NCBI GenBank assembly: GCA_047639095.1
Contig: JBLIND010000010.1
Location: 1 to 38,348 of the forward strand
Source of the DNA: Candidatus Omnitrophota bacterium
GTDB lineage: Bacteria; Verrucomicrobiota; Kiritimatiellia; SS1-B-03-39; UBA6053
Length of the DNA stretch: 38,348 bases
Direction: 5' to 3'
Both the position numbers and the translations under genes were made by a program. How positions within the stretch are numbered: the first letter of the stretch is position 1; every line of letters begins with the position of its first letter. The notes below the pieces were generated by a model. That model made no database searches. It was not told where the DNA came from and saw only the letters and a program-made list of their open reading frames with translations. Shown piece by piece: positions 1 through 34,109 of the stretch.

Positions 1-1
1 A

Positions 2-424
2 GGTGCTGCGCGTGCTTCCCTGGAAAAGAAAGTCGACCTGGAGCGAAAAATTGCTAGATTGCAACCGATGGTTGACGAGGGGCGGAATACCGCGGAAGGG
101 CTAAAAACCGAACTCTACGCCATTCAACTTCGCCTCGATGAGTCGAATCGCAAAATGAGTGAGTTGGAGACCCGGAAACGTACGGTCGATGCTCGTGAGG
201 CCCTGGAGAAGTTGCGGGAACAGCTTGGAAAGGAGAGCGCACAGGAAGCCGACGAAGAGGATGTCCTGGTGCGCGAAGTGAAGGTGGACCTGGAAAAGCG
301 CCTGCGTGAGCTGGAACAGCCGGGAGCAGAGTTTGACCGCGTTGAACTGCAGGAAAGGCTCGATGCCGAAATTGAGACCTTGGGGGAAAAAAATGTATCG
401 GATGACAAGGGAACGAACGACTAA
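2..424 (+). CDS. PspA/IM30 (Vipp1/LiaH)-family coiled-coil protein, C-terminal part; the 5' end lies outside the window
   Basis: The frame is open from nt 2 (GAARASLEKKVDLERKIARLQPM...) to the stop at 424, so the gene starts upstream of the window. The protein is strongly charged, heptad-like and coiled-coil (ELETRKRTVDAREALEKLREQL...). It sits immediately upstream of NfeD/YqiJ and flotillin genes, as in the known PspA-YdjH-YdjI type operons. The family assignment rests on composition and context, not on an alignment. Confidence 0.45.
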   Translation, partial: GAARASLEKKVDLERKIARLQPMVDEGRNTAEGLKTELYAIQLRLDESNRKMSELETRKRTVDAREALEKLREQLGKESAQEADEEDVLVREVKVDLEKRLRELEQPGAEFDRVELQERLDAEIETLGEKNVSDDKGTND

Positions 425-435
425 CGGAAGCCACC

Positions 436-1101
436 ATGCTTGAGCTATTAAAAGAATCCATCGAAATCATCAACCTGCCTTTCACGGCCTTGTTCGGTCT
501 GTGCATCCTGTATTGGTTGATGGTCATCGTAGGTGTGTTGGACGCCGAGATGTTCGACGTTGATGCCGGGGACATCGACCTGGATGCCGATGTGGATGCA
601 GATGTGGATGTCGACGGCGATGTGGATGGCCATCATTCGGGTTTCGGAGAGGTGTTGGATTTCATCACCGACGGCGACGCGCCCATTATGGTGCCGGTCA
701 CCTTGTTCACCGGGAGCATGTGGATATTCTCCGTGATGGGGAACTATTACCTGAATCCGGGCAACTCCAATCTGATCTCCGTGGGGATTCTTGCCGGGGG
801 TGGCGTCCTGGGTGTCATCATCATGAAGGTGCTGACGAAACCGGTTGCCGTACTCTACCGATTGATGAACAAGGATTACGACGCGCCGGCCGAGGTCGTC
901 GGCAGTCTGGGCTCCGTCAGTTCCATGCGCCTGGATGAACGTCTGGGTACGGTGAATGTCGAGACCAAGGGCGCCCCGATTCAATTGAACGCGAAGTATT
1001 TTGGTGGTCGCAGCCTGGACAAAGGTGCCCAGGTGGTCGTGACCGGATTTGATAAGGAAAACAACACGTACACGGTACAACCCGTAGAATTGGAGAGTTA
1101 A
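436..1101 (+). CDS. YqiJ/NfeD-like inner-membrane protein (flotillin partner with a C-terminal OB-fold)
   Basis: 221 aa with an N-terminal hydrophobic segment, an Asp-rich low-complexity linker (DAGDIDLDADVDADVDVDGDVDG), two further TM segments and a C-terminal beta-rich ~60 aa (GTVNVETKGAPIQLNAKYFGG...VVVTGFD) typical of the NfeD OB-fold. Its stop lies 1 nt before the flotillin ATG (1103). Confidence 0.6.
   Translation: MLELLKESIEIINLPFTALFGLCILYWLMVIVGVLDAEMFDVDAGDIDLDADVDADVDVDGDVDGHHSGFGEVLDFITDGDAPIMVPVTLFTGSMWIFSVMGNYYLNPGNSNLISVGILAGGGVLGVIIMKVLTKPVAVLYRLMNKDYDAPAEVVGSLGSVSSMRLDERLGTVNVETKGAPIQLNAKYFGGRSLDKGAQVVVTGFDKENNTYTVQPVELES
556..630 (+). repeat. Imperfect tandem 9-nt (GAT-GYG-GAT) codon repeat encoding the Asp-rich linker of the YqiJ-like protein
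   Basis: The sequence gatgccgatgtggatgcagatgtggatgtcgacggcgatgtggatggc gives D-A/V-D units. Confidence 0.6.
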
Positions 1102-1102
1102 A

Positions 1103-3091
1103 ATGATCATCCCTACAATGGGCATAATTCTGGAAGGGTTCCTGGTAACCCTGGCTATTGCTGTACTCGTCGTCGTCGGCCTCGTGCTGCTGATCGTAAA
1201 GTGCTATCGTAAAGTCGAGCAGGGGAAGGCGCTGATACGAAACGGCATTGGCGGAACAAAGGTCTCCTTTTCCGGCATGGTGGTCGTTCCCGTCTTTCAT
1301 AAACTCGAGGTGATGGATATCTCGGTCAAGCGGGTGGAGATTTTCCGCCACGGGGTGGACGGCCTGGTCTGTAAGGACAACTTGCGCGCAGACATCAAGG
1401 TGGCTTTTTTCGTTCGCGTAAACAAAACCAAAGAAGACGTGATGAAGGTCGCGCAGTTGCTCGGTTGCGAACGAGGGTCCGATCAAAAGGCTCTGGTGGA
1501 GTTTTTCGATGCTAAGTTTTCCGAAGCCTTGAAGACGGTCGGAAAGCAGTTCGACTTTGTGGAGCTCTACGAGGAACGCAACCGGTTTAAGGACGAGATT
1601 CTGCAAATCATCGGAACGGATCTGAATGGGTATGCACTCGACGATGCGGCCATCGACTACCTGGAGCAAACACCGCTCGACAAGATGAATCCGTTTAACA
1701 TCCTGGATGCGGAAGGTATCAAGAAAATCGAACGCTTGACCTCCGCCGAAATGTTGCTCGCCAACCAGATTAAGGTGGATCGAGAACGGACCCTGGTGAA
1801 GCAGAATAACGAGGCGAAGGAAGCCATCCTTGAACTGGATAAGCAGCTGGCGGAAGCCACCGAAAAGCAGAAGCGCGAAATTCTGGAAATCCAGGCCCGT
1901 GAGAATGCCCAGGCTGCCGTGGTGGAGCAGCAGGAATTTCTCCGGTCCGAAAACCAACGGATTATGACCGCCGAGGAACTCGCGGTCGCCGAAGAAAACA
2001 AGAATCGCCAGATTATTGTTGCGGCCAAGAACAAGGAGCGCACGGAAGCGGTGGAAACCGAACGCGTCGAACGAGATCGCCTGCTGGAAGTGACTGAGCG
2101 CGAGCGGGTGGTCACCCTGGCCGACATCGAAAAGGAAAAAGTGATCGAGGTCGAAAAGCGGAATATCCAGGATGTGATCCGCGAACGCGTGGCGCTGGAG
2201 CGCTCGGTTGTGGAGGAAGAACAGAAGATCCTCGATGTGGAAGCCTTCGCCTCTGCCGACCGGACCAAGCAGGTCTCGATCACGAATGCGGAAGAGCTGG
2301 CCCAGTCCGCCCTGGTCAAGCGTGTCCAGGACGCCGAAGCCCAAAGGCTGGCTTCTGAGAAAGAAGCTGAGCGAAAGGTCATCGAAGCGGATGCGATGCT
2401 CAAAGCGAGCGAACGTGAAGCCGAGGCCATGAAAATGCTGGCGGATGCGCACGCAGCCGAAAGTGCGGTCAAAGGCATGTCGGATGTCCAGGTGATGGAA
2501 GCGGAAGCGGAAGCCCTGCGTAAGCATGGCCTGGCAGAAGCCGAGGTCATGGACAAGAAGTACGTGGTCGAAGCGGCCGGCATCGAGGCGAAAGCGGAAG
2601 CGATGAAGAAGCTCGATGGCGTGGGTAAAGAGCACGAAGAATTCAAGCTGCGCCTGAACAAAGATCTCCAGGTGGACCTGCAGAAGATCGATGTAAGTCG
2701 TCTGATCGCGGCCGAGAATGCCAAGATCGTGGGTGAAGCGCTGAAGTCGGCCAACATCGACATCGTGGGCGGCGAAAGCACCTTCTTCGAGCAGATCGTG
2801 AATGCGGTTACGGCCGGGAAGAAGGTCGATCGCTTCGTGAACGAAAGCGAAGTCCTCACCGATGTGCGGGAGGCCTTGCTCGGCGGCGATATGGGTACCC
2901 AGCTAAAGGGCCTGGTGAAGCAATTCGGGGTGAGCAGCGAAGACGTGAAAAACCTCTCGGTCTCGGCCTTGATCGGCCGCTTGTTGGTGGATGCCAAGGG
3001 CGACGACAAGAACCTGCTGAACCAGATGTTGGAAGCGGCGAGTAAGTTCGGCGTGGCCGAGCAGCCGGCCAGTAAACTCCTCGGGAAGTAA
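1103..3091 (+). CDS. Flotillin-like SPFH/Band-7 protein (YqiK/FloT family)
   Basis: 662 aa with an N-terminal TM helix (ILEGFLVTLAIAVLVVVGLVLLIV), then an SPFH core (GGTKVSFSGMVVVPVFHKLEVMDISVKRVEIF...DNLRADIKVAFFVRV) and a long Ala/Glu-rich coiled-coil tail (EA/ER repeats). This is the classic flotillin architecture. A good RBS and the NfeD partner lie upstream. Confidence 0.8.
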   Translation: MIIPTMGIILEGFLVTLAIAVLVVVGLVLLIVKCYRKVEQGKALIRNGIGGTKVSFSGMVVVPVFHKLEVMDISVKRVEIFRHGVDGLVCKDNLRADIKVAFFVRVNKTKEDVMKVAQLLGCERGSDQKALVEFFDAKFSEALKTVGKQFDFVELYEERNRFKDEILQIIGTDLNGYALDDAAIDYLEQTPLDKMNPFNILDAEGIKKIERLTSAEMLLANQIKVDRERTLVKQNNEAKEAILELDKQLAEATEKQKREILEIQARENAQAAVVEQQEFLRSENQRIMTAEELAVAEENKNRQIIVAAKNKERTEAVETERVERDRLLEVTERERVVTLADIEKEKVIEVEKRNIQDVIRERVALERSVVEEEQKILDVEAFASADRTKQVSITNAEELAQSALVKRVQDAEAQRLASEKEAERKVIEADAMLKASEREAEAMKMLADAHAAESAVKGMSDVQVMEAEAEALRKHGLAEAEVMDKKYVVEAAGIEAKAEAMKKLDGVGKEHEEFKLRLNKDLQVDLQKIDVSRLIAAENAKIVGEALKSANIDIVGGESTFFEQIVNAVTAGKKVDRFVNESEVLTDVREALLGGDMGTQLKGLVKQFGVSSEDVKNLSVSALIGRLLVDAKGDDKNLLNQMLEAASKFGVAEQPASKLLGK

Positions 3092-3125
3092 TACTGTCTC
3101 GCGAGGACCTTTAAGACAGGACATC

Positions 3126-6100
3126 ATGGCTGACACCACACAGGAACCGGATAACCAGCAGCAGGTCGCGGAGCAGACCCATCTCGAAGGAGGTACCTAC
3201 GAGATTATCCGCAACCGGCTGCTGGGGCACGGCAAGGAGCTCCAGGCCCGTCTGGCGGAGCTGAACCAGGCACGCCAGGACGTTTTTGGATCGATTGAGA
3301 CGATACTGAAAACGACCGAGCGCGTAAGCACGGATAACAATTGTATTCCGCGCGATATCGCCCAGGTAAAAGGTGGGTTCCTGTTCGGGTATAATGTCAC
3401 TCTGGGCCTGAAGACTGAAACGCAGATCAAGGATGTCTTCAGTGAATACGCGTTGGCCGATGGCGAGCTGCGCGAAGTCGAGCTGAATCTGCTGGACGAC
3501 CCGCAGTTCAAGGTGGATTTCCAGAACCTGTATAAGTTCTACCGTGAAACCCGTTTTGTTAAATTCGCCCGGAGGGGACCCAACCTGTACATGGTGTTTC
3601 GAACCGGTAAGAGCCTTGCGGATACCAAGACCTTCAAGTGGGCGATCCTGGATGGTGGGCTGAAGTACCTGGATAACCGGAGTGATCACGAATATACTTG
3701 GCCGTCCCAGCATCAATTCGAGTGGAAACGGGCCCATCGCGATATGCATCGCGGCGGTTTGCATCCGCATATCTCGTTGGACGACATCTGTTTTGTCGAA
3801 TCGGTCGGTGGTGATATCACCATCAAGATCGAAGACAATACCGCGAGCGGGGAAGGCCTTTATGCGGAACCCGTGGAGAATCCGGATCAGACCCTCGACG
3901 ATGCGGAGGTCTTCTATTCGGTGCTCGGGCATATCGTCTTGATCAAGATTCGCCCATACCAGGAAGATGCCTTTCGCTACTTTGTCTACAATGACAAAAT
4001 CCAACGGGTTAACCGAATCGATTCCATTGAGCACACCTGCGTGCTGCTGCCGGAGAATCACGGCTTCATATTTGCCAACGGGTATTACCTGGCCGATGGA
4101 GAAACCAAGATTTTTGATAGTGCGCCCGGGGCGATGCTGTTTGAACGCCGCGTCGATGCCCAGAACGGCGAAGATTTTCTCTACGTGTTCTACAATCGGG
4201 AATACGGTGGGTATGTGCTGCTCCAGTACAATATGATTCGCCAGCAGGTGGATCCGCCGATCGTTTGCAGTGGCTACACGGCATTCGAAAATGGCGAAGT
4301 CTTTCTTTTCAAAGCGGAAGTCGAGCCCCAGAAACATCATGCGATTCAAATCTGGCAGACGCCGTTTACCGGGCCCAATTTTGTGCCCGAGGTCCGGACG
4401 GATTGCTACCTGTATAAGTTGGGGAATAAAGCGGTGGTGCGTTGCATGGCGGAATGCCAGGGCGTGGTCAATCTTCTGAACAAGGAAGAGACCTACGCGA
4501 ATCTGTACAGCGACATCGCTCGCCAGGCTGCATCCGTGGTCGATAACTACTTCTGGTTGAATACGGATGACGCGTACCATCTGGATGCACCGCTGATTGA
4601 AATCAAGACGGCTGCTGATGCTGCGGTGGAAGAATTTGCCAAGGTCACCCGCCTGAAATCCAACACCCGGAAGGAAATCAATCGGGTCTCGGCGATGGTT
4701 CAAGAGTTGATTCGCTCGATGGATCATGAGGTGCTGCGGGAAATCGGACAGTTTGTCAGCCTGTTGACTGGCTTGAGGGGTGCGCGGGGAGAGATCATTG
4801 CCACCAAGGATCTTCGCTATACCAATATCGAAGCGGTTGAGGCTTTGGAAACGGATGTGACGGAGCACACGGAGGTGTTGTCACAGAAGTGCGTGGAATT
4901 TCTGCTGCGCCAGGATGCCATGGATCCTTACCGGGCCCAGGTTAGCGAGGTAGATAAGCGGATCCGGAAACTCAACAAAGGCAGCGATGCGAAAGCTGCC
5001 GCTCAACAGATTGATGCCTGCGCAAGTGAGCTGGAAATGCTGATTGAGATCGTCAGCAATTTGAAAATTGATGATCCCACCCAGACCACCCAGATCATCG
5101 ATGGCATCTCCGACATTTACACGGAAGTCAATCAGCTGAAGGCAGCCTTGAAAAACCGCCAGATGGAACTGCTGAAGACCGAAGGCGTCGCGGAATTTAA
5201 TGCCCAGTTGAAGTTGCTGAATCAGAGCGTAGTCAGCTACTTGGAAATTTGCGACACTCCCGAAAAGTGCGACGAGTATGCCAATCGCGTGATGGTCCAG
5301 ATCGAGAGTTTGGAAAGCCGCTTCGCGGATTTCGATGAATATGTGGTTGAACTCACCGACAAGCGTGAGGAGCTCTACAGCGCGTTTGAGAGCCGTAAGG
5401 TACAGTTGCTGGAGAAGCGCTCGCGTCGGGCCAACACCCTGGCTACGGCCTCGGATCGCATCCTGAAAGGCGTTCAGCATCGAGCTAACGCACTGAAGTC
5501 GGTGGCGGAGATCAACGGGTACTTCGCGTCGGATCTGATGATCGAAAAGCTGCGGGACCAGATAGCCGAACTGAGCCTCTTGGGCGAATCCGTGAAAACG
5601 GATGACATCCTCACTCGGATCAAGACGATCCAGGAAGATGCGGTTCGGCAACTGAAAGACCGGGCCGACCTGTTTGAGGACGGCGAAAATATCATTCGGA
5701 TTGGATCGCATAAGTTTTCCGTCAACAAACAAGCCCTCGAGCTGAGTACGGTCCACCGGGATGGTGAGCTGTTTTTCCACCTGAACGGGACCGGGTTCTT
5801 TGCAGCCGTTGAGGACGAAGTGTTAACCAGCGTTCATGCGGTCTGGGAGCAGGAGGTGCTTTCGGAAAACGGCGATGTGTATCGGGCGGAATATCTGGCC
5901 TATCAACTGATGCTGGCCTGGCGTGATGACAGTGGAATATGGGATCCCACGCTGGCAAAGTTGGACGACGCGGGCTGGCAGGGGAAAGTCCAGGCTTTCG
6001 CGGCTCCCCGGTATGCTGAAGGGTATACCAAAGGCGTGCACGATCATGATGCGGCACTGATCCTCCATGCGCTGAAAACCTTTGATGAAAAACTGGGTTT

Positions 6101-8417
6101 GCTTCGATTCAGTGTGCCGTCGCGTGCTCTGGGCTTGTACTTCTGGCATGTGCAAGCCGATGAGGCCTTCGAAGCTCGAATGCTGGCCAATATTCGAAGT
6201 ACCCACCGAATACGTAAGGCGTTCGGCGGTGCAATTCCTCCTGCGGAAGTGCTGGCGGAATTGGAGCAAGCCATCTCGACCTTTGCCGAGCCCTTCACCT
6301 GCTTTAACTTGCGCCATGCCACCGATGCTGCGAGATACCTGTTTGAAGAGCTTGGCGAAGAAACACGTCATGTCATGAGTGCCCGGGCTTCCGACATTAA
6401 TCGCAAATATGACGAGACTATGAAGCGGAAACGGTTTTCTGAACCGCTGGAAAAAATTCTGGATCCCGTGCGATCTTCCCCCGTGGATCTCTACCGCATT
6501 GTGCGTGAATGGTTGGATGGTTTTGTTCGAGAGCATGGCGAAGCGGGAGATGCTGCGTATGTCGATGAGGCCGTGGTGATCTATCTGCGTGATGATTTTC
6601 AGCATCGCCTGACCATTGAGCAGGAAGCGACGGTGACGGTGGCGGAGTTAAAGGGCAACCACCCTCGGATTGACGCGAACCGTCTGATCCTGAATTACCA
6701 GGACTACATGGATCGACTCCGCCAATTCAGCTCGGAAGTGGTGCCCATGTACGAAACCTTCGTACAGCGAAGCCGCGAATTGACGGCCACCTTTACCAAA
6801 GAGCTCAAGCTCGAAGAATTTAAACCGCGTATCCTGTCTTCGTTCGTACGGAATCGCCTGCTCGATGAAATTTACCTGCCCTTGATTGGCAATAACCTGG
6901 CCAAGCAGATCGGGGCCGCGGGCGACAGCAAGCGTACGGATCGTATGGGCATGTTGCTGCTGATTTCGCCTCCGGGGTACGGAAAAACCACCCTGATGGA
7001 ATATATTGCGAATCGCCTGGGGCTTACCTTTGTGAAGGTGAACGGACCCGCCTTGGGACATGACGTGACCTCGCTGGATCCATCAGAAGCGCGGAATGCG
7101 TCGGCTCGGGAGGAGCTGAAGAAGCTGAATCTCGCCTTTGAAATGGGTGATAACATCATGCTGTACCTGGATGACATCCAGCATACCCATCCGGAGCTGC
7201 TTCAGAAATTTATTTCACTCTGTGACGGTCAGCGCAAAATCGAAGGCGTTTACAAAGGCGTAAGTCGGACCTACGACCTGCGGGGCAAAAAGGTCGCGGT
7301 AGTGATGGCGGGTAATCCCTACACGGAAAGCGGCGATAAGTTCCAGATACCCGACATGCTCGCCAACCGCGCGGATACCTACAATCTAGGTGACATCATC
7401 GGGGACAACGACGAAGCCTTCAAGCTAAGCTATATCGAAAACATGCTGACCTCGAACCCGGTGCTCAACGCCTTGTCCCGCCAAAGCCGGTCGGACATCT
7501 ATGCCATGGTGAAAATAGCCGAAACCGGAAGTCGGGATGGCGTGGAGTTCGAAGGGAATTATTCCGGAGATGAAATCGAGGAGTATACGAACACCCTGAC
7601 CAAGCTGTTGCGTGTGCGCGATGTGATCCTGAAGGTCAACGAATTGTATATCAGTTCGGCGGGCATGGAAGAGGCATATCGGGTTGAACCCTCGTTTAAA
7701 CTCCAGGGATCGTATCGGAATATGAATCGCATCGCGGAACGCGTGTTGCCGGTGATGAATGACGAGGAGCTGAATTCCCTGGTGCTCTCTTCATATGAGC
7801 AGGATTCTCAGACCCTGACCACCGGTGCTGAAGCAAATATGCTCAAATTCAAGGAGCTCATTGGCTGGTTGAGCCCGGAAGAAGCGCTGCGCTGGGATGA
7901 GATCAAAGGCAAGTTCCGGAAAAATCAGTCGATGTTCGGGATCGAAGCCGGAGATAAGATCGGCATGGTGATTGCCCAGATGGCTTCCTTCGCCGATGGC
8001 TTGGAGAATATACGCGCGGCCCTGGTTACGGGTTCATTGTCCGAGCAAAAGGACGCTGCCGGTCTTTCTCCGGAAATGCTTCAGCAGATTCAGGTGATCC
8101 TCGAGAGCCTGCGTTCCGGCAAGGAGCAGGAAGAGGTTCAGCACGAAGTGGCAACCCGCTTGCCTGATGCAATCAGTGCGATGATGGAAAACCAGTTTCA
8201 GTCGATGCAGACCTGGCTGGATCCCGTGCTCGCGACCTCAAAGCAGAATACCGATTACATGCGGGGGCTGATTGGTAATTTTAACGTCATGGTCGATGGA
8301 TACAACGATGTCTTGCGACAGTTGAAAGAGGTATACTTTCCAGAAATCGATCCGAAGATGAAAAAGGCTGATCCCTCAACCGATTCCGATGTGCTATCCA
8401 CACCACCGAAAAACTAA
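3126..8417 (+). CDS. Giant (1763 aa) protein with an internal MoxR/McrB/dynein-clade AAA+ ATPase module; function unknown
   Basis: A continuous ORF with no internal stops. It lies 35 nt after the flotillin stop on the same strand, with a short hairpin (CTGTCT..AGACAG) in the gap. Walker A LLLISPPGYGKTTLMEYIANRLG is at nt ~6960-7000, Walker B IMLYLDDIQH at ~7160-7185, and the sensor/Arg-finger-like VVMAGNPYTESGDKFQIPDMLANRADTYNLGD at ~7300-7390. The ~1270 N-terminal and ~330 C-terminal residues have no motif I recognise. The long antisense ORFs overlapping it (3111..4868, 4881..5780, 5823..6605 on the minus strand) lack any such features and are taken as spurious. Confidence 0.75.
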   Translation: MADTTQEPDNQQQVAEQTHLEGGTYEIIRNRLLGHGKELQARLAELNQARQDVFGSIETILKTTERVSTDNNCIPRDIAQVKGGFLFGYNVTLGLKTETQIKDVFSEYALADGELREVELNLLDDPQFKVDFQNLYKFYRETRFVKFARRGPNLYMVFRTGKSLADTKTFKWAILDGGLKYLDNRSDHEYTWPSQHQFEWKRAHRDMHRGGLHPHISLDDICFVESVGGDITIKIEDNTASGEGLYAEPVENPDQTLDDAEVFYSVLGHIVLIKIRPYQEDAFRYFVYNDKIQRVNRIDSIEHTCVLLPENHGFIFANGYYLADGETKIFDSAPGAMLFERRVDAQNGEDFLYVFYNREYGGYVLLQYNMIRQQVDPPIVCSGYTAFENGEVFLFKAEVEPQKHHAIQIWQTPFTGPNFVPEVRTDCYLYKLGNKAVVRCMAECQGVVNLLNKEETYANLYSDIARQAASVVDNYFWLNTDDAYHLDAPLIEIKTAADAAVEEFAKVTRLKSNTRKEINRVSAMVQELIRSMDHEVLREIGQFVSLLTGLRGARGEIIATKDLRYTNIEAVEALETDVTEHTEVLSQKCVEFLLRQDAMDPYRAQVSEVDKRIRKLNKGSDAKAAAQQIDACASELEMLIEIVSNLKIDDPTQTTQIIDGISDIYTEVNQLKAALKNRQMELLKTEGVAEFNAQLKLLNQSVVSYLEICDTPEKCDEYANRVMVQIESLESRFADFDEYVVELTDKREELYSAFESRKVQLLEKRSRRANTLATASDRILKGVQHRANALKSVAEINGYFASDLMIEKLRDQIAELSLLGESVKTDDILTRIKTIQEDAVRQLKDRADLFEDGENIIRIGSHKFSVNKQALELSTVHRDGELFFHLNGTGFFAAVEDEVLTSVHAVWEQEVLSENGDVYRAEYLAYQLMLAWRDDSGIWDPTLAKLDDAGWQGKVQAFAAPRYAEGYTKGVHDHDAALILHALKTFDEKLGLLRFSVPSRALGLYFWHVQADEAFEARMLANIRSTHRIRKAFGGAIPPAEVLAELEQAISTFAEPFTCFNLRHATDAARYLFEELGEETRHVMSARASDINRKYDETMKRKRFSEPLEKILDPVRSSPVDLYRIVREWLDGFVREHGEAGDAAYVDEAVVIYLRDDFQHRLTIEQEATVTVAELKGNHPRIDANRLILNYQDYMDRLRQFSSEVVPMYETFVQRSRELTATFTKELKLEEFKPRILSSFVRNRLLDEIYLPLIGNNLAKQIGAAGDSKRTDRMGMLLLISPPGYGKTTLMEYIANRLGLTFVKVNGPALGHDVTSLDPSEARNASAREELKKLNLAFEMGDNIMLYLDDIQHTHPELLQKFISLCDGQRKIEGVYKGVSRTYDLRGKKVAVVMAGNPYTESGDKFQIPDMLANRADTYNLGDIIGDNDEAFKLSYIENMLTSNPVLNALSRQSRSDIYAMVKIAETGSRDGVEFEGNYSGDEIEEYTNTLTKLLRVRDVILKVNELYISSAGMEEAYRVEPSFKLQGSYRNMNRIAERVLPVMNDEELNSLVLSSYEQDSQTLTTGAEANMLKFKELIGWLSPEEALRWDEIKGKFRKNQSMFGIEAGDKIGMVIAQMASFADGLENIRAALVTGSLSEQKDAAGLSPEMLQQIQVILESLRSGKEQEEVQHEVATRLPDAISAMMENQFQSMQTWLDPVLATSKQNTDYMRGLIGNFNVMVDGYNDVLRQLKEVYFPEIDPKMKKADPSTDSDVLSTPPKN

Positions 8418-8438
8418 CCTGCTACGTAAAAGGAAAAG

Positions 8439-8864
8439 ATGATGAAGTCATTTTCCGACCTGCCTGCTGAGATTCGACTGAGTCATTTCAAATTTGTCGT
8501 TGCTGCATCAGGCGCCGATAGCGATCTCACTGAGGAGGAGCGTAGCGTGCTGGGATTTGTTTCACGGAAGTGGGGGCTGTCTCAAACGGAGGTTGATCAG
8601 GTGTACCGAAATCCTGCGGTCATCGAATTCGTGATTTCCGATAGCCGGGAGGTGTGTTTTCACCAGCTATACGATCTGGTGGAGATGGCGATCATCGACA
8701 GCAAACTGAAGCAGGCGGAAATGCAAATGTGCCTGGGCTACGCAGCCCAGTTGGGATTCCCGGAAGACGCCGTCGATACGGTCATCCAGGGGATTCTCGA
8801 AGGTAATCAGGCCGGAAAATCCGAAGAGGACATCCAGGCCGGACTGATGGCGCGATTGGCGTAA
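8439..8864 (+). CDS. TerB-like (tellurite-resistance TerB / DjlA N-domain fold) small all-alpha protein
   Basis: 141 aa, 21 nt after the giant gene's stop, with an RBS-like aaaaggaaaag upstream. It carries a TerB-type signature repeat (VVAASGADSDLTEEERSVLGFVSRKWGLSQTEV matches A-x-ADG-x5-E-x3-L...LGLS, and a second degenerate copy MAIIDSKLKQAEMQMCLGYAAQLGFPED). The family call is from memory of the motif and has not been aligned. Confidence 0.5.
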   Translation: MMKSFSDLPAEIRLSHFKFVVAASGADSDLTEEERSVLGFVSRKWGLSQTEVDQVYRNPAVIEFVISDSREVCFHQLYDLVEMAIIDSKLKQAEMQMCLGYAAQLGFPEDAVDTVIQGILEGNQAGKSEEDIQAGLMARLA

Positions 8865-8955
8865 GGGCTTTCACTCGGCCATTCATACATGACGTGAGTA
8901 AAATGACGGTCCTGCCTGTCGTATATAAAGCACGATCCACTAACCCGAGATTCTT

Positions 8956-10416
8956 ATGAAAACCGTATGCCTTTCGCTCATCGCTCTGTTCCTCCTTCCG
9001 TTCGCCCTGCTTGCCACGGACAAACCCAACGTGATCATTATCTTTATCGATGACATGGGCTATGGCGATGTGGGCTTCAACGGAGCAACCGGACCGAAAA
9101 CGCCGAATCTGGATCAGATGGCGAAAGAGGGGATGCGCTTCGATGATTTTTATGTCGGATGTGCCGTTTGTTCGGGGTCCCGTACCGCTTTGATGACCGG
9201 CTGTCACTATACCCGCTTGAGTATGGCTGCGGTGCTGTTTCCAAACAGCAATCAGGGTCTGCATCCGGATGAGGTGACCATTGCGGATCAGTTGAAAGGC
9301 GTTGGGTACAAAACCGCATGCGTCGGGAAGTGGCACCTCGGCCATTTACCGCCCTGTCTGCCGACGTACCAGGGCTTCGACAGCTACTATGGCATTCCAT
9401 ACAGCAACGATATGTGGATCGATCCGGCGAATGCCCTGTCGAAGAACATCGTTTTGCGTAAGGGCGTCACCTTGGAGCAGTTGAAAGCCGGGCTTAAGCA
9501 GAAAAACGAAGTGCCGCTGCTGCGCAACGAAGAGGTGATCGAATATCCGGTCGATCAAAGCACGGTAACCAAACGCTACACCGAGGAGAGCATTCGCTTC
9601 ATCGAGTCGAACAAGGATCAACCCTTCTTCCTTTATTTGCCTCACACCATGGTGCACTTGCCCCTGGCGGCATCCGAGGCCTTTGCCAATCGTCACGACG
9701 AGATGATCTGGAATGCGATCGAGGAAGTCGATTGGTCCGTTGGTGAAATCCTGAAGACCTTGAAGTCGGCTGGCATCGCGGAGAAAACCCTGGTCATCTT
9801 TACCAGTGATAACGGCGCCGCCGTAGGGACTTCGCTTCCCTTGCGGGCCAAAAAAGGCAGCGTCTATGACGGCGGAATTCGAGAGCCCACTGTGATGTGG
9901 TGGCCGGGAAGGATTCCGGCAAATGTGGTTTGTCATGAGGTGGCGGCTACCATCGACTTGTTGCCTACGCTCTCCAAGCTTGCCGGGGCTCCGCTGCCGG
10001 ATCGCAAGATTGACGGAAAAAATATCTGGTCCCTGATGTCGGGCGAGCCCGGTGCGAAGAGCCCACATGAAACGTACGTCTTAAAGCATGGCCCGGGAGC
10101 GGTTCGGTCGGGGAAATGGAAGTTTTATCCCTGGAAAGAAGGCAAGGGCGGCAAGCAGCGGGGGGATGTAAAAGTGGCCCGATCGGATCTGCCGGTGCAG
10201 CTTTATAATACCCAGGTGGATATCGGCGAAACCCAGAATCTGGCAGCCAAATATCCCGAAGTCGTCGAGCGCCTGCAGAAAGCGTACACGACCCATGTCG
10301 CTGAGATTAATGCCAACCAACGGCCAACTGCGGCTTTACAGCGCCCGGCGGGCAAAGCTGGATCCGAACGCCCGGGTGGAGCAAAGAAAAAGCCTGCCAA
10401 AAAGAAGGCGGGTTGA
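8956..10416 (+). CDS. Secreted sulfatase (arylsulfatase family) with a non-canonical FGly motif C-S-G-S-R
   Basis: Signal peptide MKTVCLSLIALFLLPFALLA. Metal-binding IIIFIDDMGYGD, the FGly-region GCAVCSGSRTALMTG, GKWHLG, and C-terminal sulfatase blocks (IFTSDNGA, GGIREP). The C-terminus is Lys-rich (AKKKPAKKKAG). Confidence 0.85.
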   Translation: MKTVCLSLIALFLLPFALLATDKPNVIIIFIDDMGYGDVGFNGATGPKTPNLDQMAKEGMRFDDFYVGCAVCSGSRTALMTGCHYTRLSMAAVLFPNSNQGLHPDEVTIADQLKGVGYKTACVGKWHLGHLPPCLPTYQGFDSYYGIPYSNDMWIDPANALSKNIVLRKGVTLEQLKAGLKQKNEVPLLRNEEVIEYPVDQSTVTKRYTEESIRFIESNKDQPFFLYLPHTMVHLPLAASEAFANRHDEMIWNAIEEVDWSVGEILKTLKSAGIAEKTLVIFTSDNGAAVGTSLPLRAKKGSVYDGGIREPTVMWWPGRIPANVVCHEVAATIDLLPTLSKLAGAPLPDRKIDGKNIWSLMSGEPGAKSPHETYVLKHGPGAVRSGKWKFYPWKEGKGGKQRGDVKVARSDLPVQLYNTQVDIGETQNLAAKYPEVVERLQKAYTTHVAEINANQRPTAALQRPAGKAGSERPGGAKKKPAKKKAG

Positions 10417-10451
10417 GTCGGAGTTTATCGACGACGAATGGGAGGATTCCG

Positions 10452-12557
10452 CTACTCTACCACGATGCGTAGGTATTTTCTCCGCTCGTTCTGGGTCTGC
10501 AAGGTGAGCTGGAGCATTCCGTTTACTTGTTCGATCGTATAATTCGATAAGGGTTCATCGGTCCAGGTTCCGGAAAGGTCTGTCGTTTGCTGGAGGCGAA
10601 GTTGCCCGGGATCGGTTGCTGCGGGAACGAGCACCTCAAAAACCAGGTTGCTGAAGGCATTGCTGAAGACGACATCGCTCAACGAGGGTGGCGGATCGGT
10701 GACCGCGAGAGAAAAAACCGGTCCCCATTCGAGTGAAAAATCATCCCAGACCTGCGCCCGCATATCGAGGGCGTAGGTGCCAGGCGTGTCAGATGACCAT
10801 GAAAAGTTATCGCTATTCGGAACGGCCATCATGGTCGAATTGGTCAATTCCTGCGCATCAGATAAGAGGATTGAATCGATAAACCATCCCAGGTGATCCG
10901 CCGTCCCGACGAAATATACACCGGCCCGACGGTAAACAAAGCGCAGGCGGATGGCCTGACCAGCGTAGGCGTTAAGTGGAACCGTCCGAGTGATGAAATT
11001 GGATTCGCCCGGACCATCTGAACCAGCTTGTTCATAGATTGAATTCCAACTGATTCCCTCATCTGTCGAGACTTCCACGAGGGCAAATTGGGTGGTGGCG
11101 GCCCACCGGAGTTGGCTGCTGAAACTCAACTCGCAGCCCGCTCCCGGAAGAATCACTTTGTCCCATTCAATTTCGTGGTCATCCAGCGGTGTTCCGCTTG
11201 GATGTGCGAGGTGGAAGCTGTGACTGCCCGCTTGAACAACGTTGCTGTTGTGTACCTCATAGGTTCCATCCGTTCGGATGATGATGTTGTCTGTGGTTTC
11301 GGCATCCTCTCCGGATAAGAGGGCCGGCTGACTTAGTCTAACCTGATAGCCGGAGGCAAAGTCCACTTCCGGGTGGGTAAACGCCTGCGGAATGCCGGTT
11401 GAGAGATGGGTGGGTCCAGCGACTGTGAGTTGAACCGTATCCGGACCCAATTGAGATGGGTCGAAGACCGTTACTGTGTAGTTGTATGATTCCGCCGCTC
11501 CGTTTCGGATTATGTTGCTGATTGCGATGGTGTAGGTGGTGTCGACACCCAGGGTGGGCCACTCCGCGAAAAATGCATTGGGGTCCATACTCGCAGGATG
11601 CCAGACCATGGTATTCTCGCCGACCATGGGATCCCCGATGGACGAGCGATGATCGATTACCAGGGGGATGCCTGCGCCAGTTGGGCCCTGCATGCTCACT
11701 ACGGCGGCGGTGAAATCTCCGTCATCGAGCGAAAAGGACCAGCGAGTAGGTGTGATCGGATTTGGGAAATATCCGGGTGGTGGCCAGGCAATGAAAGCTT
11801 CGCGTGTAGTCGGGCGGGGGAGCCCGCCGTCACCGCTGTTAACGACCAACAGACAGTTTGCGGATGGATAACTTCCGCTTGCCGGTACATCACCGCTTGC
11901 CATGGTTTGCGTCTGGGGAAAAAGAATCCACCGCCGATGACCGACACGCGCATTGTTGCTGCCGTTATCCCGCGTCTGACTGCTCAATGCTTCATATCCG
12001 ATATTGCCCAACGAGAGGTTGGATCGCGCAGCTGCCGCCGCACCGATCGCGGAATAACAGAACCAGCTCGGTGGTGGGGAGTGGCTGAGTGCTTCATTTC
12101 GGCTGAACATCAATGCCGCGGCCTGACACTCGACAAGCGCCGCTGGGTTAAACGAAACATCGGCCGGAACACCTGCCAGTGCGCGCGTGGCATTGATTCG
12201 TCGGAGTACCGCGTCCAGAAAGGCGCTCGAAGACTCTCCGGGGATGCAGGCATCCACATCACCGTTCCAACCGATGGGTGTGCCGTTTGAACTGCTGTAG
12301 ACCGCATTGTAAAACGCGCGCACCTCTTCACGGCTTAAGGTATTTATGAACGGGAATCCACCAGTAGCCAGTGGTGCTCCGCGACGGCGAACCTGGTCCG
12401 AGGCCGCAGTCCGTTCAACCGCTACTCCATGGCGAGGTTCCATGGGACGGAGGCGCGGTGGCGTCTGGGCTTGAGACTGGACAATAAACAACCCGGCAAG
12501 CAGGCTGAGGCCGTACCCATTTAGATGCTTCTTTCGAGGCCGAACGGTGGTACCCAT
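10452..12557 (-). CDS. Secreted protein with an N-terminal CAP/SCP/PR-1-like domain and a large beta-rich C-terminal region
   Basis: 701 aa with the signal peptide LSLLAGLFIVQSQAQ. CAP-like blocks: VLRRINATRALAGVPADVSFNPAALVECQAAALMFSRNEALSHSP and ARVGHRRWILFPQTQTMASG (the bacterial SCP-like GHRR motif). The remaining ~450 aa is Ser/Thr/Gly-rich and beta-like. It is convergent with the upstream sulfatase and divergent from the next one. Confidence 0.55.
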   Translation of the reverse strand: MGTTVRPRKKHLNGYGLSLLAGLFIVQSQAQTPPRLRPMEPRHGVAVERTAASDQVRRRGAPLATGGFPFINTLSREEVRAFYNAVYSSSNGTPIGWNGDVDACIPGESSSAFLDAVLRRINATRALAGVPADVSFNPAALVECQAAALMFSRNEALSHSPPPSWFCYSAIGAAAAARSNLSLGNIGYEALSSQTRDNGSNNARVGHRRWILFPQTQTMASGDVPASGSYPSANCLLVVNSGDGGLPRPTTREAFIAWPPPGYFPNPITPTRWSFSLDDGDFTAAVVSMQGPTGAGIPLVIDHRSSIGDPMVGENTMVWHPASMDPNAFFAEWPTLGVDTTYTIAISNIIRNGAAESYNYTVTVFDPSQLGPDTVQLTVAGPTHLSTGIPQAFTHPEVDFASGYQVRLSQPALLSGEDAETTDNIIIRTDGTYEVHNSNVVQAGSHSFHLAHPSGTPLDDHEIEWDKVILPGAGCELSFSSQLRWAATTQFALVEVSTDEGISWNSIYEQAGSDGPGESNFITRTVPLNAYAGQAIRLRFVYRRAGVYFVGTADHLGWFIDSILLSDAQELTNSTMMAVPNSDNFSWSSDTPGTYALDMRAQVWDDFSLEWGPVFSLAVTDPPPSLSDVVFSNAFSNLVFEVLVPAATDPGQLRLQQTTDLSGTWTDEPLSNYTIEQVNGMLQLTLQTQNERRKYLRIVVE

Positions 12558-12671
12558 ATGCTGAGTTTAAATCCGCCAGGCTTCATTGTATAGGCCGTTC
12601 TACTTTTAGACGTTCCGACTTGGCTTGGATACGGAGATTGTTAAAAGTAATTGGATTCAGTGGAGACCCTT

Positions 12672-14738
12672 ATGAGATATCTATATATGCTGTTTAGCCT
12701 TTTCGTCCTCACAACCCATGCGGCGGTTAAACCAAATATCCTTTTTATCTTTTCCGATGACCATGCGTATCAGGCGATCAGTGCCTATGGGCATGGGCTG
12801 AATGAAACACCGAACATCGACCGCATTGCCAAGGAAGGGGTGCGTTTCAATCGGTGTTATGTGAGCAACGCCATTTGCGGACCGATGCGTGCGGTCATTC
12901 AAACCGGCAAATACTCCCACTTGAACGGCTTCCTGATCAATGGGAACAAATTTGATGGCAACCAGTGGACCTTCCCCAAGGAATTGCAGAAAGTGGGTTA
13001 CCAGACGGCCGTGATCGGCAAGTGGCACCTCGGTACGCATATGGAGCCCAAGGGCTTTAACTATTCCGAAGTGCTGATCGATCAGGGCCCGTATTACAAT
13101 CCACCGATGCTGCGTGATGAAAAAGGCGACGGCAACCGGGTGAAGAAGCAATACACCGGGTACACCACGGAGATTATTACGGATCTGGCCCTGGAGTGGC
13201 TCAAAAACCAACGCGATCAGGAAAAGCCGTTCATGTTGATGTATCAACATAAGGCTCCGCACCGGAACTGGGAACCGGGTCCTGATTACCTGCATCTCTA
13301 CGACGATGTCACCTTCCCCGAGCCGGAGTCCTTGTTCGACGATTACACCCATCGAGCCGATCCGGCCCGTGACCAGGATATGTCCATTTCTAAAACCATG
13401 ACTCGGCGGGATCTGAAGCTCGATCCCCCGCGCAATTTTACCCCTGAGCAATTAGCGACCTGGAATGCGGCTTACGAGCCGAAGAACAAAGCCTTCGAGG
13501 CGATGAAACTCGAAGGCCGCGAGCTGATCAGCTGGAAATTTCAGCGCTACATCAAAGACTACCTGCGCTGCATCGCCGCCGTGGATCATGAGGTCGGCAA
13601 AGTCCTCGATTATCTGGATAAGAGCGGCCTGGCGAAGAATACCATCGTCATCTACTGTTCCGATCAGGGCTTTTACCTGGGTGAACACGGCTGGTTCGAC
13701 AAACGATGGATGTATGAAGAATCGTTCCGGACGCCTTTTCTCGTGCGATGGCCCGATGTCGTTGCGCCCGGTCTTGTGAATGAAACCGACATCGTCTCAC
13801 CGGTAGACTTTGCTGCGACGTTTCTCGAGATCGCTGGCGCAGCCAATCCGGGAGACCTCCAGGGTAAATCGTTGATTCCTATCCTCAAAGGTCAGACCCC
13901 GCGCGATTGGCGAAAGTCCTTCTACTATCATTACTACGAGGGTGGGGGACATGGCGTTGCCCGGCATTATGGTGTGTCGAACGGACGCTACAAATTGATC
14001 AACTACTATCAGGATCATGTGAAGCAATGGGAGTTGTTTGACCTTAAATCGGATCCTCAGGAAATGCGCAGCCAATACGAGAATCCCGAATATGCCAAGG
14101 TGAAGGAGGACATGTTCCAGGAACTTCAACGCTTGCGGGTTGAACTGAAATTGCCCGATGAAGATCCGGAGGCGAGTTTCGGAGGCTGGGGGGATCGCAC
14201 CCTGGAGCTTCGCAAGATGGCCAGCGCCGCGAACGTGCCGTTGACGGAGGTCCTCCGCATGCAGGCCGTCGGCGTGGTGAAGAACAAGAAGCCCGATCCG
14301 AGCTTTAAGCCGATCACGGTCGGTGCCTGGATTTCGACTGAACGTTCGGATGGCGTGATCCTTGCCCAGGGCGGAGGCGGTATGGGCTACGCATGCTACC
14401 TGAAAGACGGCTACCTGGTCTTCGGGATCAAAAATGGCGGTTCGTTAAGTGAAGTGAAGTCGAAGGCGAAAATCCCCATGAAGACCCGGACCCATGTGCG
14501 GGCGACCCTGGATGCCGAGCTGAAGCTGACCCTGTTTGTGAATGGGAAACCGGCCGGAATCGGCAAGGGCCGGTTTGTGTCGGGCATCCCAAACGAAGGG
14601 CTGGACGTCGGGGAAGACAGCGGAAGCCTGGTGGGGAACTATACGGATGACAATGTTTTCAAGGGGACGATGAGCGACATTCGGATCTATTGGGGGCGGC
14701 TTGAACAGAAAGAATTAGACGCCTGGGCACATCGTTAA
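12672..14738 (+). CDS. Secreted sulfatase (canonical C-G-P-M-R FGly motif) with a C-terminal LamG/concanavalin-like extension
   Basis: The signal peptide [18 protein letters not shown] points to the ATG at 12672; the ORF track start at 12651 is also possible. Sulfatase blocks [34 protein letters not shown] and VIYCSDQGF. The C-terminal ~200 aa ([19 protein letters not shown]...[11 protein letters not shown]...[10 protein letters not shown]) resembles a LamG-type beta-sandwich. Confidence 0.85.
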
Positions 14739-14806
14739 GCGCACTTCTGCGATTGTTTAATGGAGCCTTGCGGCACGAGGGGTGTGCGTCGTAAACTGAG
14801 CCTCTT

Positions 14807-15907
14807 ATGCGCCGATTATTGATCACCATCCACGCCTCTTTGATCCTGCTGCTCGTCGGCTGCGATACGGTGCCCGCTCCCGTCTCGCGCCCCTTGCCTG
14901 AAGGCGAAGGTGCGCACCCGAGTCTGGGGCTTTCACCTTTCGAACCGGTCGACCGCGCCCATACCCAGGAGCCGGGGACGACCGACATTATTCACCAGGC
15001 TGAATCGCTTTTAATTCCTTACCGCTTGCGCAGCCTGCTCGAGCTGACGGGCCGATGGAGCAAGGTTCGTTTGCTACCTGCTGGTTCGCGTACAGCTGAC
15101 TGGCGCGTCGAGGGCCGGATTCTCCGCTCGGATCCAGATGGTATTCAGTTACGCATGCGTGTGTTGGATCAAGAGAACCGTCTCTTGCTGGAAAAGGAAT
15201 ACGCGCATAACCCGGCAAAAGGTGAGGCCCTGTTTAATCCGCTGTTTGATGCGATCATCTCCGATCTGAATCAGCTTCGTTTCCAATCCGCACCGAATGA
15301 GGACCTCGCGCGGGTCCGTTTTGCATCGGATCTTTTGCCGGAGGTGTTTTCAGGCTACCTGGGCGAAACGCCAGAAGGACACACCACGCTGCGCCGCATG
15401 CCTACTCAAGACGATCCGGTATATCAGCGGATGCAGTTGCTCTACACTCGTGAAGCCAGCCTGGTCGACGCCATGGATGCGCACTATGGACGGTATTACG
15501 AAGCCATCGAAAAGCCGTATACGATCTGGCGTGAAGCCGTCAGCGGCGGAGTGAATAAAATGAGCCGCTATGAGAAGCGTTCGTGGTTGGATCCGTTCCT
15601 GCTGATCGCCGGCGAGCTGACCAGCGGCGGTGGACTGTTCGTCGAAGCCGCAGGTGGGCAGACGGCTGCGGACAAGGTCTATGAGAAAGGGCGCGACTGG
15701 TCTTCGGGCTATGGCGAGAAAGCGCTTCATCTTCGGAATGACCTCGATCGGGCCGGCATGCTGGTGACCGCAGAAATGAAGCCATTTACGGTGGAGATTC
15801 AGGGCAAGGTTGAATCGCTGAGCGGAACCGCGGCCGAGCAGTACAAACAATGGCGCGACCTGCTGGGGAAGATGTACACGAAAGAAACCGGAATATCCAT
15901 CGAGTAG
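14807..15907 (+). CDS. Hypothetical lipoprotein
   Basis: 366 aa. The N-terminus MRRLLITIHASLILLLVGCDT has a lipobox L-V-G-C. The rest is soluble and mixed alpha/beta with no recognised motif. Confidence 0.55.
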   Translation: MRRLLITIHASLILLLVGCDTVPAPVSRPLPEGEGAHPSLGLSPFEPVDRAHTQEPGTTDIIHQAESLLIPYRLRSLLELTGRWSKVRLLPAGSRTADWRVEGRILRSDPDGIQLRMRVLDQENRLLLEKEYAHNPAKGEALFNPLFDAIISDLNQLRFQSAPNEDLARVRFASDLLPEVFSGYLGETPEGHTTLRRMPTQDDPVYQRMQLLYTREASLVDAMDAHYGRYYEAIEKPYTIWREAVSGGVNKMSRYEKRSWLDPFLLIAGELTSGGGLFVEAAGGQTAADKVYEKGRDWSSGYGEKALHLRNDLDRAGMLVTAEMKPFTVEIQGKVESLSGTAAEQYKQWRDLLGKMYTKETGISIE

Positions 15908-31659: not shown

Positions 31660-32031
31660 ATGCTTCACGTTGAAGAAATTTGCACCAACCTGGCAATTGT
31701 GCTGATGGCGGTAGGGGTGCTGGTCATCATGTTGGGTGGGGTGAAAACACTCATCGGTTATGCGGTCTACGAATTCCGCCATCTATTCTCATTGAAAAAT
31801 GAACTCGCCCTCGACGAGCTCCGCAGCAATTTTGGTGCGTATCTGTTACTCGGCCTGGAATTCTCTGTTGCCGCCGATATCATTGCAACCTTTGTCGAGC
31901 CGACGCAGGAAAAGCTCATTGCGCTGGTGGTTTTAGTGATCATTCGAACCCTGATATCCTATTTCATCGGCAAGGAACGCATCGAAGTCCGACAGGAGTT
32001 TGCCGAAGTGAACCACGAGGAAATGCTTTAA
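31660..32031 (+). CDS. DUF1622-family small membrane protein
   Basis: The conserved LLLGLEFSVAADIIATF block in a 3-4 TM protein. The start is taken at MLHVEEICTNL (31660); the track start at 31627 is possible. Its stop overlaps the next gene's ATG by 1 nt (TAATG at 32029-32033). Confidence 0.55.
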   Translation: MLHVEEICTNLAIVLMAVGVLVIMLGGVKTLIGYAVYEFRHLFSLKNELALDELRSNFGAYLLLGLEFSVAADIIATFVEPTQEKLIALVVLVIIRTLISYFIGKERIEVRQEFAEVNHEEML

Positions 32032-33965: not shown

Positions 33966-34109
33966 ATGGCGCATCGCGTCGTATGGTGGGTGATCCTGGT
34001 GGCCGTCCCGGTCTTTATTTATGTCGCCATTACCGGACGCCAGCCCATTGAGCCCATGGACGCTCTGCCGGACCTGAGCATCCCGGTGACGGGAGACCAG
34101 CAGCCATGA
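33966..34109 (+). CDS. Very small single-TM protein (hypothetical)
   Basis: MAHRVVWWVILVAVPVFIYVAITG... Its stop overlaps the next gene's ATG (ATGA at 34106-34109). Support is weak (size only). Confidence 0.25.
   Translation: MAHRVVWWVILVAVPVFIYVAITGRQPIEPMDALPDLSIPVTGDQQP

Follow-up and report, generated by a model that had tools for sequence, protein, structure and literature searches.

How an AAA+ ATPase that carries aspartate in place of the usual catalytic glutamate might work, and on what, is the question raised by a giant gene in a 38,348-nucleotide stretch of DNA (hereafter the window; positions 1 to 38,348 of contig JBLIND010000010.1, assembly GCA_047639095.1, Candidatus Omnitrophota bacterium). 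The gene (3126-8417, plus strand) encodes a giant cytoplasmic ATPase of 1763 amino acids and is the third member of a triad that begins with genes for an NfeD-like membrane protein and a flotillin. Members of its family are named "DNA repair ATPase" or "MoxR-like ATPase" in databases, the latter being the NCBI and JGI name of an identical public protein from a Kiritimatiellia metagenome-assembled genome. The best explanation overall, to which we assign a probability of roughly 0.45, is that the protein would be a slow, partner-regulated, MoxR-like remodeling ATPase acting on flotillin/NfeD assemblies.

The ATP site and its Walker B motif

An earlier reading of the same DNA, referred to here as the original prediction, had described an AAA+ module with a Walker B motif ending in Asp-Asp (DD) instead of Asp-Glu (DE) at 6930-7420, and translation of this interval reproduced exactly the four strings then quoted, namely LLLISPPGYGKTT, NIMLYLDDIQH, VAVVMAGNP and IPDMLANRAD. 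Positions of these motifs were examined in an AlphaFold model of residues 1150-1763 (predicted local distance difference test score, pLDDT, 78 overall and >90 across the AAA+ core), and their conservation was assessed in the best 150 hits with the AAA+ module, which were alignment-checked representatives of 50%-identity clusters (48-76% identity) from a search space of 1.84 billion cluster representatives. Walker A (SPPGYGKTT, containing K1287 and T1288; 6966-6992, on the plus strand, as are all features of this gene) follows strand β1 of the model. It fits the P-loop pattern GxxxxGK[ST], though the first Gly is Ser here, and GYGK[TS][TSL] was present in all 138 representatives that cover this motif.

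Walker B (IMLYLDD, 7155-7175) terminates strand β3 of the model at D1349 and D1350 and is followed by an essentially invariant I-Q-H (Q1352 in 148/150 and H1353 in 147/150 representatives; 7179-7184). Thus, the second position of the AAA+ pattern hhhhDE is Asp. D1349 was Asp in 149/149 representatives and D1350 was Asp in 147/149, the exceptions being one Asn and one Ala and never Glu, and the DD pair was also invariant in the 120 closest homologues. The same register was obtained with hhalign, which placed DD opposite D114-E115 of RavA and opposite the DE of NorQ. A true DE a few residues away, the circumstance under which the original prediction would have fallen, was looked for, and no hhhhDE motif was present near Walker B.

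The remaining residues expected of a hydrolytic site were retained. N1397 (7314-7316), the sensor-1 Asn in MAGNP, lies at the tip of β4 (VAVVMAG) in the model, and R1415 (7368-7370), a candidate trans-acting Arg finger in PDMLANRAD, lies at the end of α4 before β5; both were present in 150/150 representatives. Catalytic roles are suggested for these two residues by their modeled positions and conservation, the stretch around R1415 having been lined up with the STRQRF stretch of NorQ by eye rather than by a computed alignment. A candidate sensor-2 Arg, R1531 in LQGSYRNMN[KR] (7716-7718), lies 116 residues beyond R1415 and was present in 137/138 representatives; it is situated in a predicted helical lid, for which the hhalign alignment was of low confidence and for which no lid family in Pfam matched (region 7386-7934). 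Besides the canonical motifs and the residues after Walker B, E1330 in α2 (7113-7115) was near-invariant (146/147). E1401 (YTESG), the closest acidic residue that could substitute for the absent Glu, was kept in 135/150 representatives and was S, T, G, A, Q or H in the other 15, which makes a compensating catalytic role unlikely; E1401 was rejected on this ground, and the suggestion that a catalytic residue is supplied from elsewhere was left without support. As judged from the sequence, the ATP site is complete and invariant (K1287, D1349, N1397 and the candidates R1415 and R1531) except for the replacement of the catalytic Glu by Asp at D1350.

A precedent for an AAA+ ATPase of this type is provided by DnaA of the initiator clade, the Walker B core of which is identical (LLIDDIQF compared with LYLDDIQH) and the DD of which, in the Escherichia coli protein, was aligned to the DD of the giant ATPase. 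E. coli DnaA hydrolyzes ATP slowly, the trigger being a partner (Hda together with the clamp). The presence of LIDDIQF in DnaA indicates that an AAA+ ATPase with DD can be functional while its activity is regulated, and DD by itself is less surprising given the same DDIQ Walker B in that protein. In NorQ, mutation of the Walker B Glu (E109Q) leaves about 2% of ATPase activity and stabilizes the hexamer (PMC9976466). By analogy with these two proteins, slow or regulated hydrolysis, as raised in the original prediction, would be a reasonable expectation for the giant ATPase.

The same NorQ result, taken with the absence of the catalytic Glu from all 149 representatives, could instead be read to mean that the protein is a catalytically dead, ATP-binding scaffold (a pseudo-ATPase) in which DD locks the ATP-bound state and only stabilizes the oligomer. 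We consider this unlikely. Sensor-1 and Arg-finger residues tend to drift in dead AAA+ domains, whereas N1397 and R1415 (150/150 each) and R1531 (137/138), which are residues of hydrolysis and not of binding, are preserved in this family. Moreover, D1350 is almost never N, Q or A, residues that would be expected to be tolerable if catalysis were irrelevant, and DnaA, as is well established, hydrolyzes ATP with DD.

Class of the AAA+ module

The original prediction had assigned the module to the helix-2-insert clade. Pfam matches were distributed among AAA (35.8 bits), AAA_22, AAA_5 (27.4 bits) and RuvB_N, and searches of the PDB with the single sequence and with two profiles covered only the region from Walker A to α2 of p97, Cdc48, Rix7 and RuvB. 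The clade is not decidable by sequence methods and is decided by comparison of structures. Foldseek E-values gave no separation of RuvB, CbbQ, NorQ and MCM; the top target-normalized TM-scores were 0.45-0.63 for NorQ and CbbQ compared with 0.34-0.43 for RuvB, and MoxR proteins were the closest structural relatives. When a 233-sequence family alignment was compared with NorQ by hhalign, a probability of 89% was obtained for an alignment that was collinear from Walker A to sensor 1 and that covered Walker A, Walker B, L-x-D-x-x-R, the pre-sensor-1 hairpin and the sensor-1 NP. This was a greedy local run with NorQ references from plasmid nor loci, the RavA reference used elsewhere having come from E. 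coli; two smaller family profiles (A4 and A5) aligned at Walker A only. Because the highest TM-scores were with NorQ and CbbQ and because the alignment with NorQ was collinear, the AAA+ module, as modeled, is assigned to the MoxR class. These structural and classification statements are very probably correct.

The α/β core of the module (residues 1244-1420, 6855-7385) consists in order of α0, β1, Walker A, α1, β2, a loop, α2, β3 with Walker B, α3, the pre-sensor-1 β-hairpin, β4 with sensor 1, α4 with the candidate Arg finger, and β5, and is followed by the helical lid region (residues 1421-1603, 7386-7934, from the secondary structure of the model). All four motif strings of the original prediction lie inside the interval that it gave, although the AAA+ module itself is larger and extends from helix α0 (residue 1244, nucleotide 6855) to approximately residue 1603 (nucleotide 7934).

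The pre-sensor-1 β-hairpin (KIEGVYKGVSRTYD, residues 1371-1384, 7236-7277) was evident from model strands at 1371-1376 and 1379-1384 between α3 and β4, from the collinear NorQ alignment and from its invariance, and is preceded by invariant D1367 and R1370 (SLCDGQR, compared with PLTDDRR in NorQ). A 32-residue helix at 1481-1512, before the candidate sensor 2, is by its place in the model a candidate pre-sensor-2 insert. The segment between β2 and α2 (GPALGHDVTSLDPSEARN, residues 1307-1324, 7044-7097), where any helix-2 insert would be situated, was a short helix and loop according to DSSP. A β-hairpin inserted in α2 is the defining feature of clades 6 and 7, clade 6 comprising bacterial enhancer-binding proteins and McrB (PMC7973254). 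No such hairpin was predicted here, the loop being followed by a regular, unbroken 16-residue α2 with pLDDT >90, and the module therefore appears to lack the helix-2 insert of clade 6 as well as that of clade 7, to which MoxR belongs. The hairpin of NorQ (GGETVWVDG) fell opposite a gap in the hhalign alignment, where local confidence was low, and the family's own 9-residue loop fell just past β2. Thus, the relation to MoxR proteins contained in the original assignment was borne out while the defining helix-2 β-hairpin was not.

Likenesses to CbbQ and NorQ (CbbQ/NirQ/NorQ/GpvN family; PDB 6l1q and 9qh4) include the collinear order from Walker A to sensor 1, the pre-sensor-1 β-hairpin with its preceding L-x-D-x-x-R, the sensor-1 NP, the Arg that ends α4 and a similar spacing from the Walker A Lys to Walker B (60 compared with 62 residues). 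The differences are that Walker B is DD in the giant ATPase and DE in CbbQ and NorQ, that nothing equivalent to the helix-2 β-hairpin of NorQ (RYLLKGGETVWVDG) is predicted in the giant ATPase, that the insertion before sensor 2 is far larger, and that CbbQ and NorQ are free-standing proteins of about 270 residues whereas this module is embedded in 1763 residues, with identity of 13-16%. In NorQ loci, moreover, norD or a VWA gene lies directly downstream, while no VWA/MIDAS gene is found here. RavA of E. coli is comparable in that a MoxR-class AAA+ module is fused to extra domains that dock on a large oligomeric partner, RavA forming a cage with LdcI and pairing with the VWA protein ViaA. The Walker B motif of RavA was in register with DD, with an hhalign probability of only 25%, but in RavA Walker B is DE, a helix-2 insert is present and the adjacent viaA encodes a VWA partner, and the stretch from β2 to β3 is 7 residues longer than in the giant ATPase family. 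McrB, dynein and midasin, which had been put forward for comparison by the original prediction, matched the AAA+ module no better than did generic AAA+ proteins. Only 909 of the 1.84 billion representatives were found at E<=1e-3 with the AAA+ module, which indicates that it is isolated from mainstream AAA+ families.

The likeness to MoxR proteins could be superficial, and the protein might instead pull its substrate through a central pore as do p97, FtsH and RuvB, which would make it an unfoldase or translocase of classical or HCLR type. The best sequence matches were indeed with p97 D1, Cdc48 and AFG2 (E ~1e-7, Walker A to α2), RuvB was aligned over Walker A with an hhalign probability of 96% and had Foldseek E-values equal to those of CbbQ, and the β2-α2 segment is of classical length and aligned nearly without gaps to that of p97 D1. 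However, no aromatic residue is present at the pore-loop position in the β2-α2 segment, so that processive threading is unlikely, and this alternative as a whole is regarded as improbable. A phmmer alignment with p97 was set aside because its Walker B was mis-registered, with GDN opposite IDE.

The triad and its possible function

The first gene of the triad (436-1101, plus strand) encodes a small NfeD/YqiJ-like membrane protein of 221 amino acids with transmembrane-like segments at residues 8-42 and 111-141 and a β-rich C-terminal tail; its match to YqiJ_N was weak and sub-threshold (Pfam E=0.006), and it was 32% identical to the neighbor of the Symmachiella gene (E=2e-24). After a spacer of 1 bp, the second gene (1103-3091, plus strand) encodes a probable flotillin/SPFH-family membrane protein of 662 amino acids, named "flotillin family protein" or "YqiK" by NCBI/JGI, that consists of an N-terminal transmembrane segment, an SPFH-like region, a long helical region rich in charged residues and, at the C terminus, a conserved extension (approximately residues 530-662). 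No match to Pfam Band_7 was obtained for the copy in the window even at E up to 10; a Streptacidiphilus orthologue, 43% identical, carries Band_7, and the partners in Symmachiella and Desulfococcaceae were 55-56% identical. Going by these comparisons of sequence, the flotillin partner looks like a divergent SPFH subfamily, 654-740 amino acids long among the 120 closest homologues. A spacer of 34 bp separates it from the giant gene.

Conservation of this arrangement was evident from tblastn searches of the triad proteins against 83 related loci, 59 of which were informative in that they contained at least 3.2 kb upstream of the giant gene. A flotillin gene lay upstream on the same strand in 57/59 informative loci, and in 52 of these 57 the flotillin gene was in turn preceded by a detectable homologue of the NfeD-like protein. 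Triad loci were found in Planctomycetota, Verrucomicrobiota, Bacteroidota, Desulfobacterota and Hydrogenedentes, as well as in Symmachiella dynata and in single loci of Vibrio alginolyticus and Streptacidiphilus, and all three proteins were 50-60% identical across phyla. A VWA/MIDAS partner gene typically, although not universally, adjoins MoxR genes (PMC13036017). No VWA domain was found among neighbors in the window, nor in the 7-8 kb flanking the gene to left and right in Symmachiella, Vibrio and Streptacidiphilus, and no gene of the MoxR type (DE[IV]NR) was found in the window or in 85 loci, MutS being the sole match.

Genes are inserted into the triad at some loci. In one from Desulfococcaceae (L002, 6075-7382), a DUF6922/AbiEii toxin-antitoxin pair was situated between the flotillin and giant ATPase genes, and in two from Bacteroidota (L049, 5111-6197; L060, 5131-6531), one or two unrelated small genes occupied the same place. 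A conserved fourth gene at this position in Bacteroidota was considered and rejected, since the inserts vary by locus. A full triad was also seen on a contig flagged by its depositors as a contaminant (L055, UNVERIFIED_CONTAM: Acetivibrio alkalicellulosi), from which no occurrence in Firmicutes can be inferred.

The giant protein is itself composed, according to the models, of four main parts, namely an N-terminal β-propeller (DUF3686), a helical stalk with DUF7902, the divergent MoxR-class AAA+ module and a helical tail. DUF3686 (residues 38-476, 3237-4553; PF12458, E=3.8e-178) comprises an N-terminal helix and then a β-rich domain that is a predicted β-propeller, with strands across residues 60-411 at pLDDT of approximately 85-90 in an AlphaFold model of residues 1-1160 (pLDDT 81) and with Foldseek matches that were β-propellers, including prolyl oligopeptidase, PON1, kelch and WD40, all at a probability of 1.0. 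In the same model, a long all-helical stalk of about 420 residues (428-847, 4407-5666) contains DUF7902 (residues 597-680, 4914-5165; PF25472, E=3.7e-27), and a small β domain (residues 856-894) and a helical domain (921-1155) precede the AAA+ module (5691-6590), with no Pfam match for residues 856-1155. The C-terminal helical tail (residues 1611-1763, 7956-8414; pLDDT 40-70) is of variable length in the family, the Bacteroidota homologues being 1622-1655 amino acids long with a shorter tail. Thus, the AAA+ module is not the only recognizable part of the protein, as had been claimed, while the claim that transmembrane segments and repeats are lacking was upheld, the maximum Kyte-Doolittle 19-residue mean being 1.16 and self-BLAST being negative for internal repeats. 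Both triad partners have transmembrane segments while the giant ATPase has none.

The gene itself is not new and belongs to a catalogued but uncharacterized Pfam family (DUF3686/DUF7902). Homologues number more than 2500. The best 120 were 49-57% identical over nearly the whole length, with more than 100 at 50-57% over at least 92% of it, and nearly all of the 120 had the same full-length architecture of DUF3686, DUF7902 and AAA; relatives were confirmed at 589 or more places in a one-genome-per-species collection. Members occur in Planctomycetota, Verrucomicrobiota, Kiritimatiellota, Bacteroidota, Desulfobacterota, Hydrogenedentes, Fibrobacterota, Actinomycetota (Streptacidiphilus and Actinocorallia) and Vibrio. 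In the literature searched, neither a characterized member of, or paper on, the DUF3686/DUF7902 family nor a paper describing the triad of flotillin, NfeD-like protein and giant ATPase was found. What appears to be undescribed is the MoxR-class variant with invariant DD and apparently without the helix-2 hairpin, the absence of the usual VWA partner from a MoxR-class module and the pan-bacterial triad with a flotillin and an NfeD-like protein.

Proteins of the SPFH and NfeD types are also encoded together in known systems (HflK/C-FtsH, QmcA-YbbJ and FloA-NfeD), and SPFH/NfeD pairs form large membrane cages (PMC13086221). The SPFH cage of HflK/C works with an AAA+ machine (PMC13086221; see also PMC13220708). 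FtsH differs from the giant ATPase in being a membrane-anchored, classical-clade AAA protease, whereas the latter is soluble, MoxR-like, free of protease and 1763 amino acids long; the partnership within the triad is proposed from gene linkage. Since the gene is nearly always third in an operon with NfeD-like and flotillin genes, a job at the flotillin/NfeD membrane assembly is most likely.

How the slow, partner-regulated remodeling ATPase proposed above might operate is set out here as a tentative functional model. The AAA+ modules would form an oligomeric ring in which R1415 acts in trans. ATP would be bound normally and hydrolyzed slowly, as the low activity of NorQ E109Q (about 2%) and the LIDDIQF motif of DnaA suggest, with Asp in place of Glu giving rise to a long-lived or partner-fired ATP state, so that the enzyme would behave as a timer or partner-stimulated switch and not as a fast processive unfoldase. 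The propeller-tipped arms could serve as docking elements on the flotillin/NfeD assembly, at the cytoplasmic face of which the ATPase may carry out ATP-dependent assembly, disassembly, opening, recycling or client handling.

Several observations weigh against this reading. Sequence-only searches place classical AAA proteins (p97 D1) above AAA_5, and slow hydrolysis is predicted from a single residue. Asp may be an adequate catalytic base, or another residue such as E1330 may compensate. Because MoxR proteins normally work with a VWA/MIDAS partner and none is encoded here, the MoxR mechanism may not transfer to the triad. Gene linkage is no proof of physical interaction, and two informative loci (L007 and L044) had no flotillin gene upstream.

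Some features of these loci would be accommodated by an anti-phage or conflict system composed of a membrane sensor and a large NTPase effector. An ORF for a TerB-like protein lies downstream of the giant gene in the window, the Desulfococcaceae locus contains the AbiEii toxin-antitoxin pair as an insert, and the V. alginolyticus locus (L084) is island-like, with an RNA ligase, HD/KTI12/AAA_33 and an R2K ATP-grasp encoded upstream (1-6900) and HipB/HipA and TelA downstream (12190-15300). Matches were also obtained in PADLOC to IetA (E=6e-4) and mad8 (E=9e-4), but these were marginal and confined to the P-loop, and none was obtained for the two membrane partners. Moreover, no effector domain such as a nuclease or protease was identified, no recognized defense gene was linked to the triad in the window or in Symmachiella, Vibrio and Streptacidiphilus, the TerB-like gene had a homologue in 0/83 other loci and the giant gene in the window is surrounded by housekeeping genes (LigA, MetE-like, sulfatases and permease). 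Identity of 50-60% across phyla and the occurrence of relatives at 589 or more places in the one-genome-per-species collection are likewise unlike the fast evolution and patchy distribution of defense genes, and a role in defense is accordingly thought improbable. A DNA-repair ATPase, as the database name says, is very improbable indeed, the Pfam and NCBI names and weak RuvB_N matches (E ~1e-5, over the P-loop) being all that points to it, while Pfam gave no match to DNA-binding, nuclease or helicase domains in the protein, no DNA-repair gene was linked to it in the loci examined (Symmachiella, Desulfococcaceae, Vibrio and Streptacidiphilus among them), its invariant neighbors are two membrane proteins and no paper backing the name was found in the literature searched.

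The main value of remodeling of flotillin/NfeD assemblies by the giant ATPase, if correct, lies in the flotillin linkage. Bacterial flotillins are widely studied as organizers of membrane microdomains, and apart from HflK/C-FtsH we know of no energy-consuming partner for them. Should linkage reflect a physical partnership, the missing motor for one large flotillin subfamily would be at hand, the misleading name "DNA repair ATPase" would be corrected for many sequences, and the partnership could be tested in cultured V. alginolyticus and S. dynata. A bolder and rather doubtful extension is that the triad is a previously unrecognized, widespread, ATP-driven flotillin machine in which a MoxR-like ring with propeller-tipped helical arms docks on the cytoplasmic side of an SPFH/NfeD cage and, through a slow DD cycle, opens, closes or recycles the cage or its clients; if true, bacterial flotillins would have a partner that consumes energy, as HflK/C has in FtsH. 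For AAA+ enzymology, the family is a MoxR-like scaffold provided by nature, with Asp permanently in the place of the catalytic Glu and with the helix-2 hairpin apparently lost, and would be a useful case in which to study the tuning of hydrolysis rate and of coupling to a partner.

Remaining genes of the window

The TerB-like ORF (141 amino acids; 8439-8864, plus strand) begins 22 bp downstream of the giant gene and matched TerB (E=0.003) and DjlA (E=6e-5) below cut-offs. It was considered as a fourth component of the triad and rejected, no homologue having been found in any of the 83 related loci; judging by this distribution it is a lineage-specific addition. A scan of 1-10500 for promoters and terminators gave sites no more numerous than in shuffled sequence. 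The rest of the window is ordinary chromosome that encodes sulfatases, the NAD-dependent DNA ligase LigA, a MetE-like enzyme and a permease. Three sulfatase genes (8956-10416, 12651-14738 and 18173-19498), one of them fused to a Laminin_G_3/ConA-like lectin domain, were located within 10 kb, and such clusters are typical of polysaccharide-degrading Kiritimatiellia. An ORF of 701 amino acids between two of the sulfatase genes (10452-12557, minus strand) had no Pfam match at E<=0.01. Two Rieske fusions were also noted on the plus strand, one (32031-33662) of a Rieske domain with a glutamate-synthase-like FMN domain and the other (34106-35158) of a ferric-reductase-like membrane domain with a Rieske domain.

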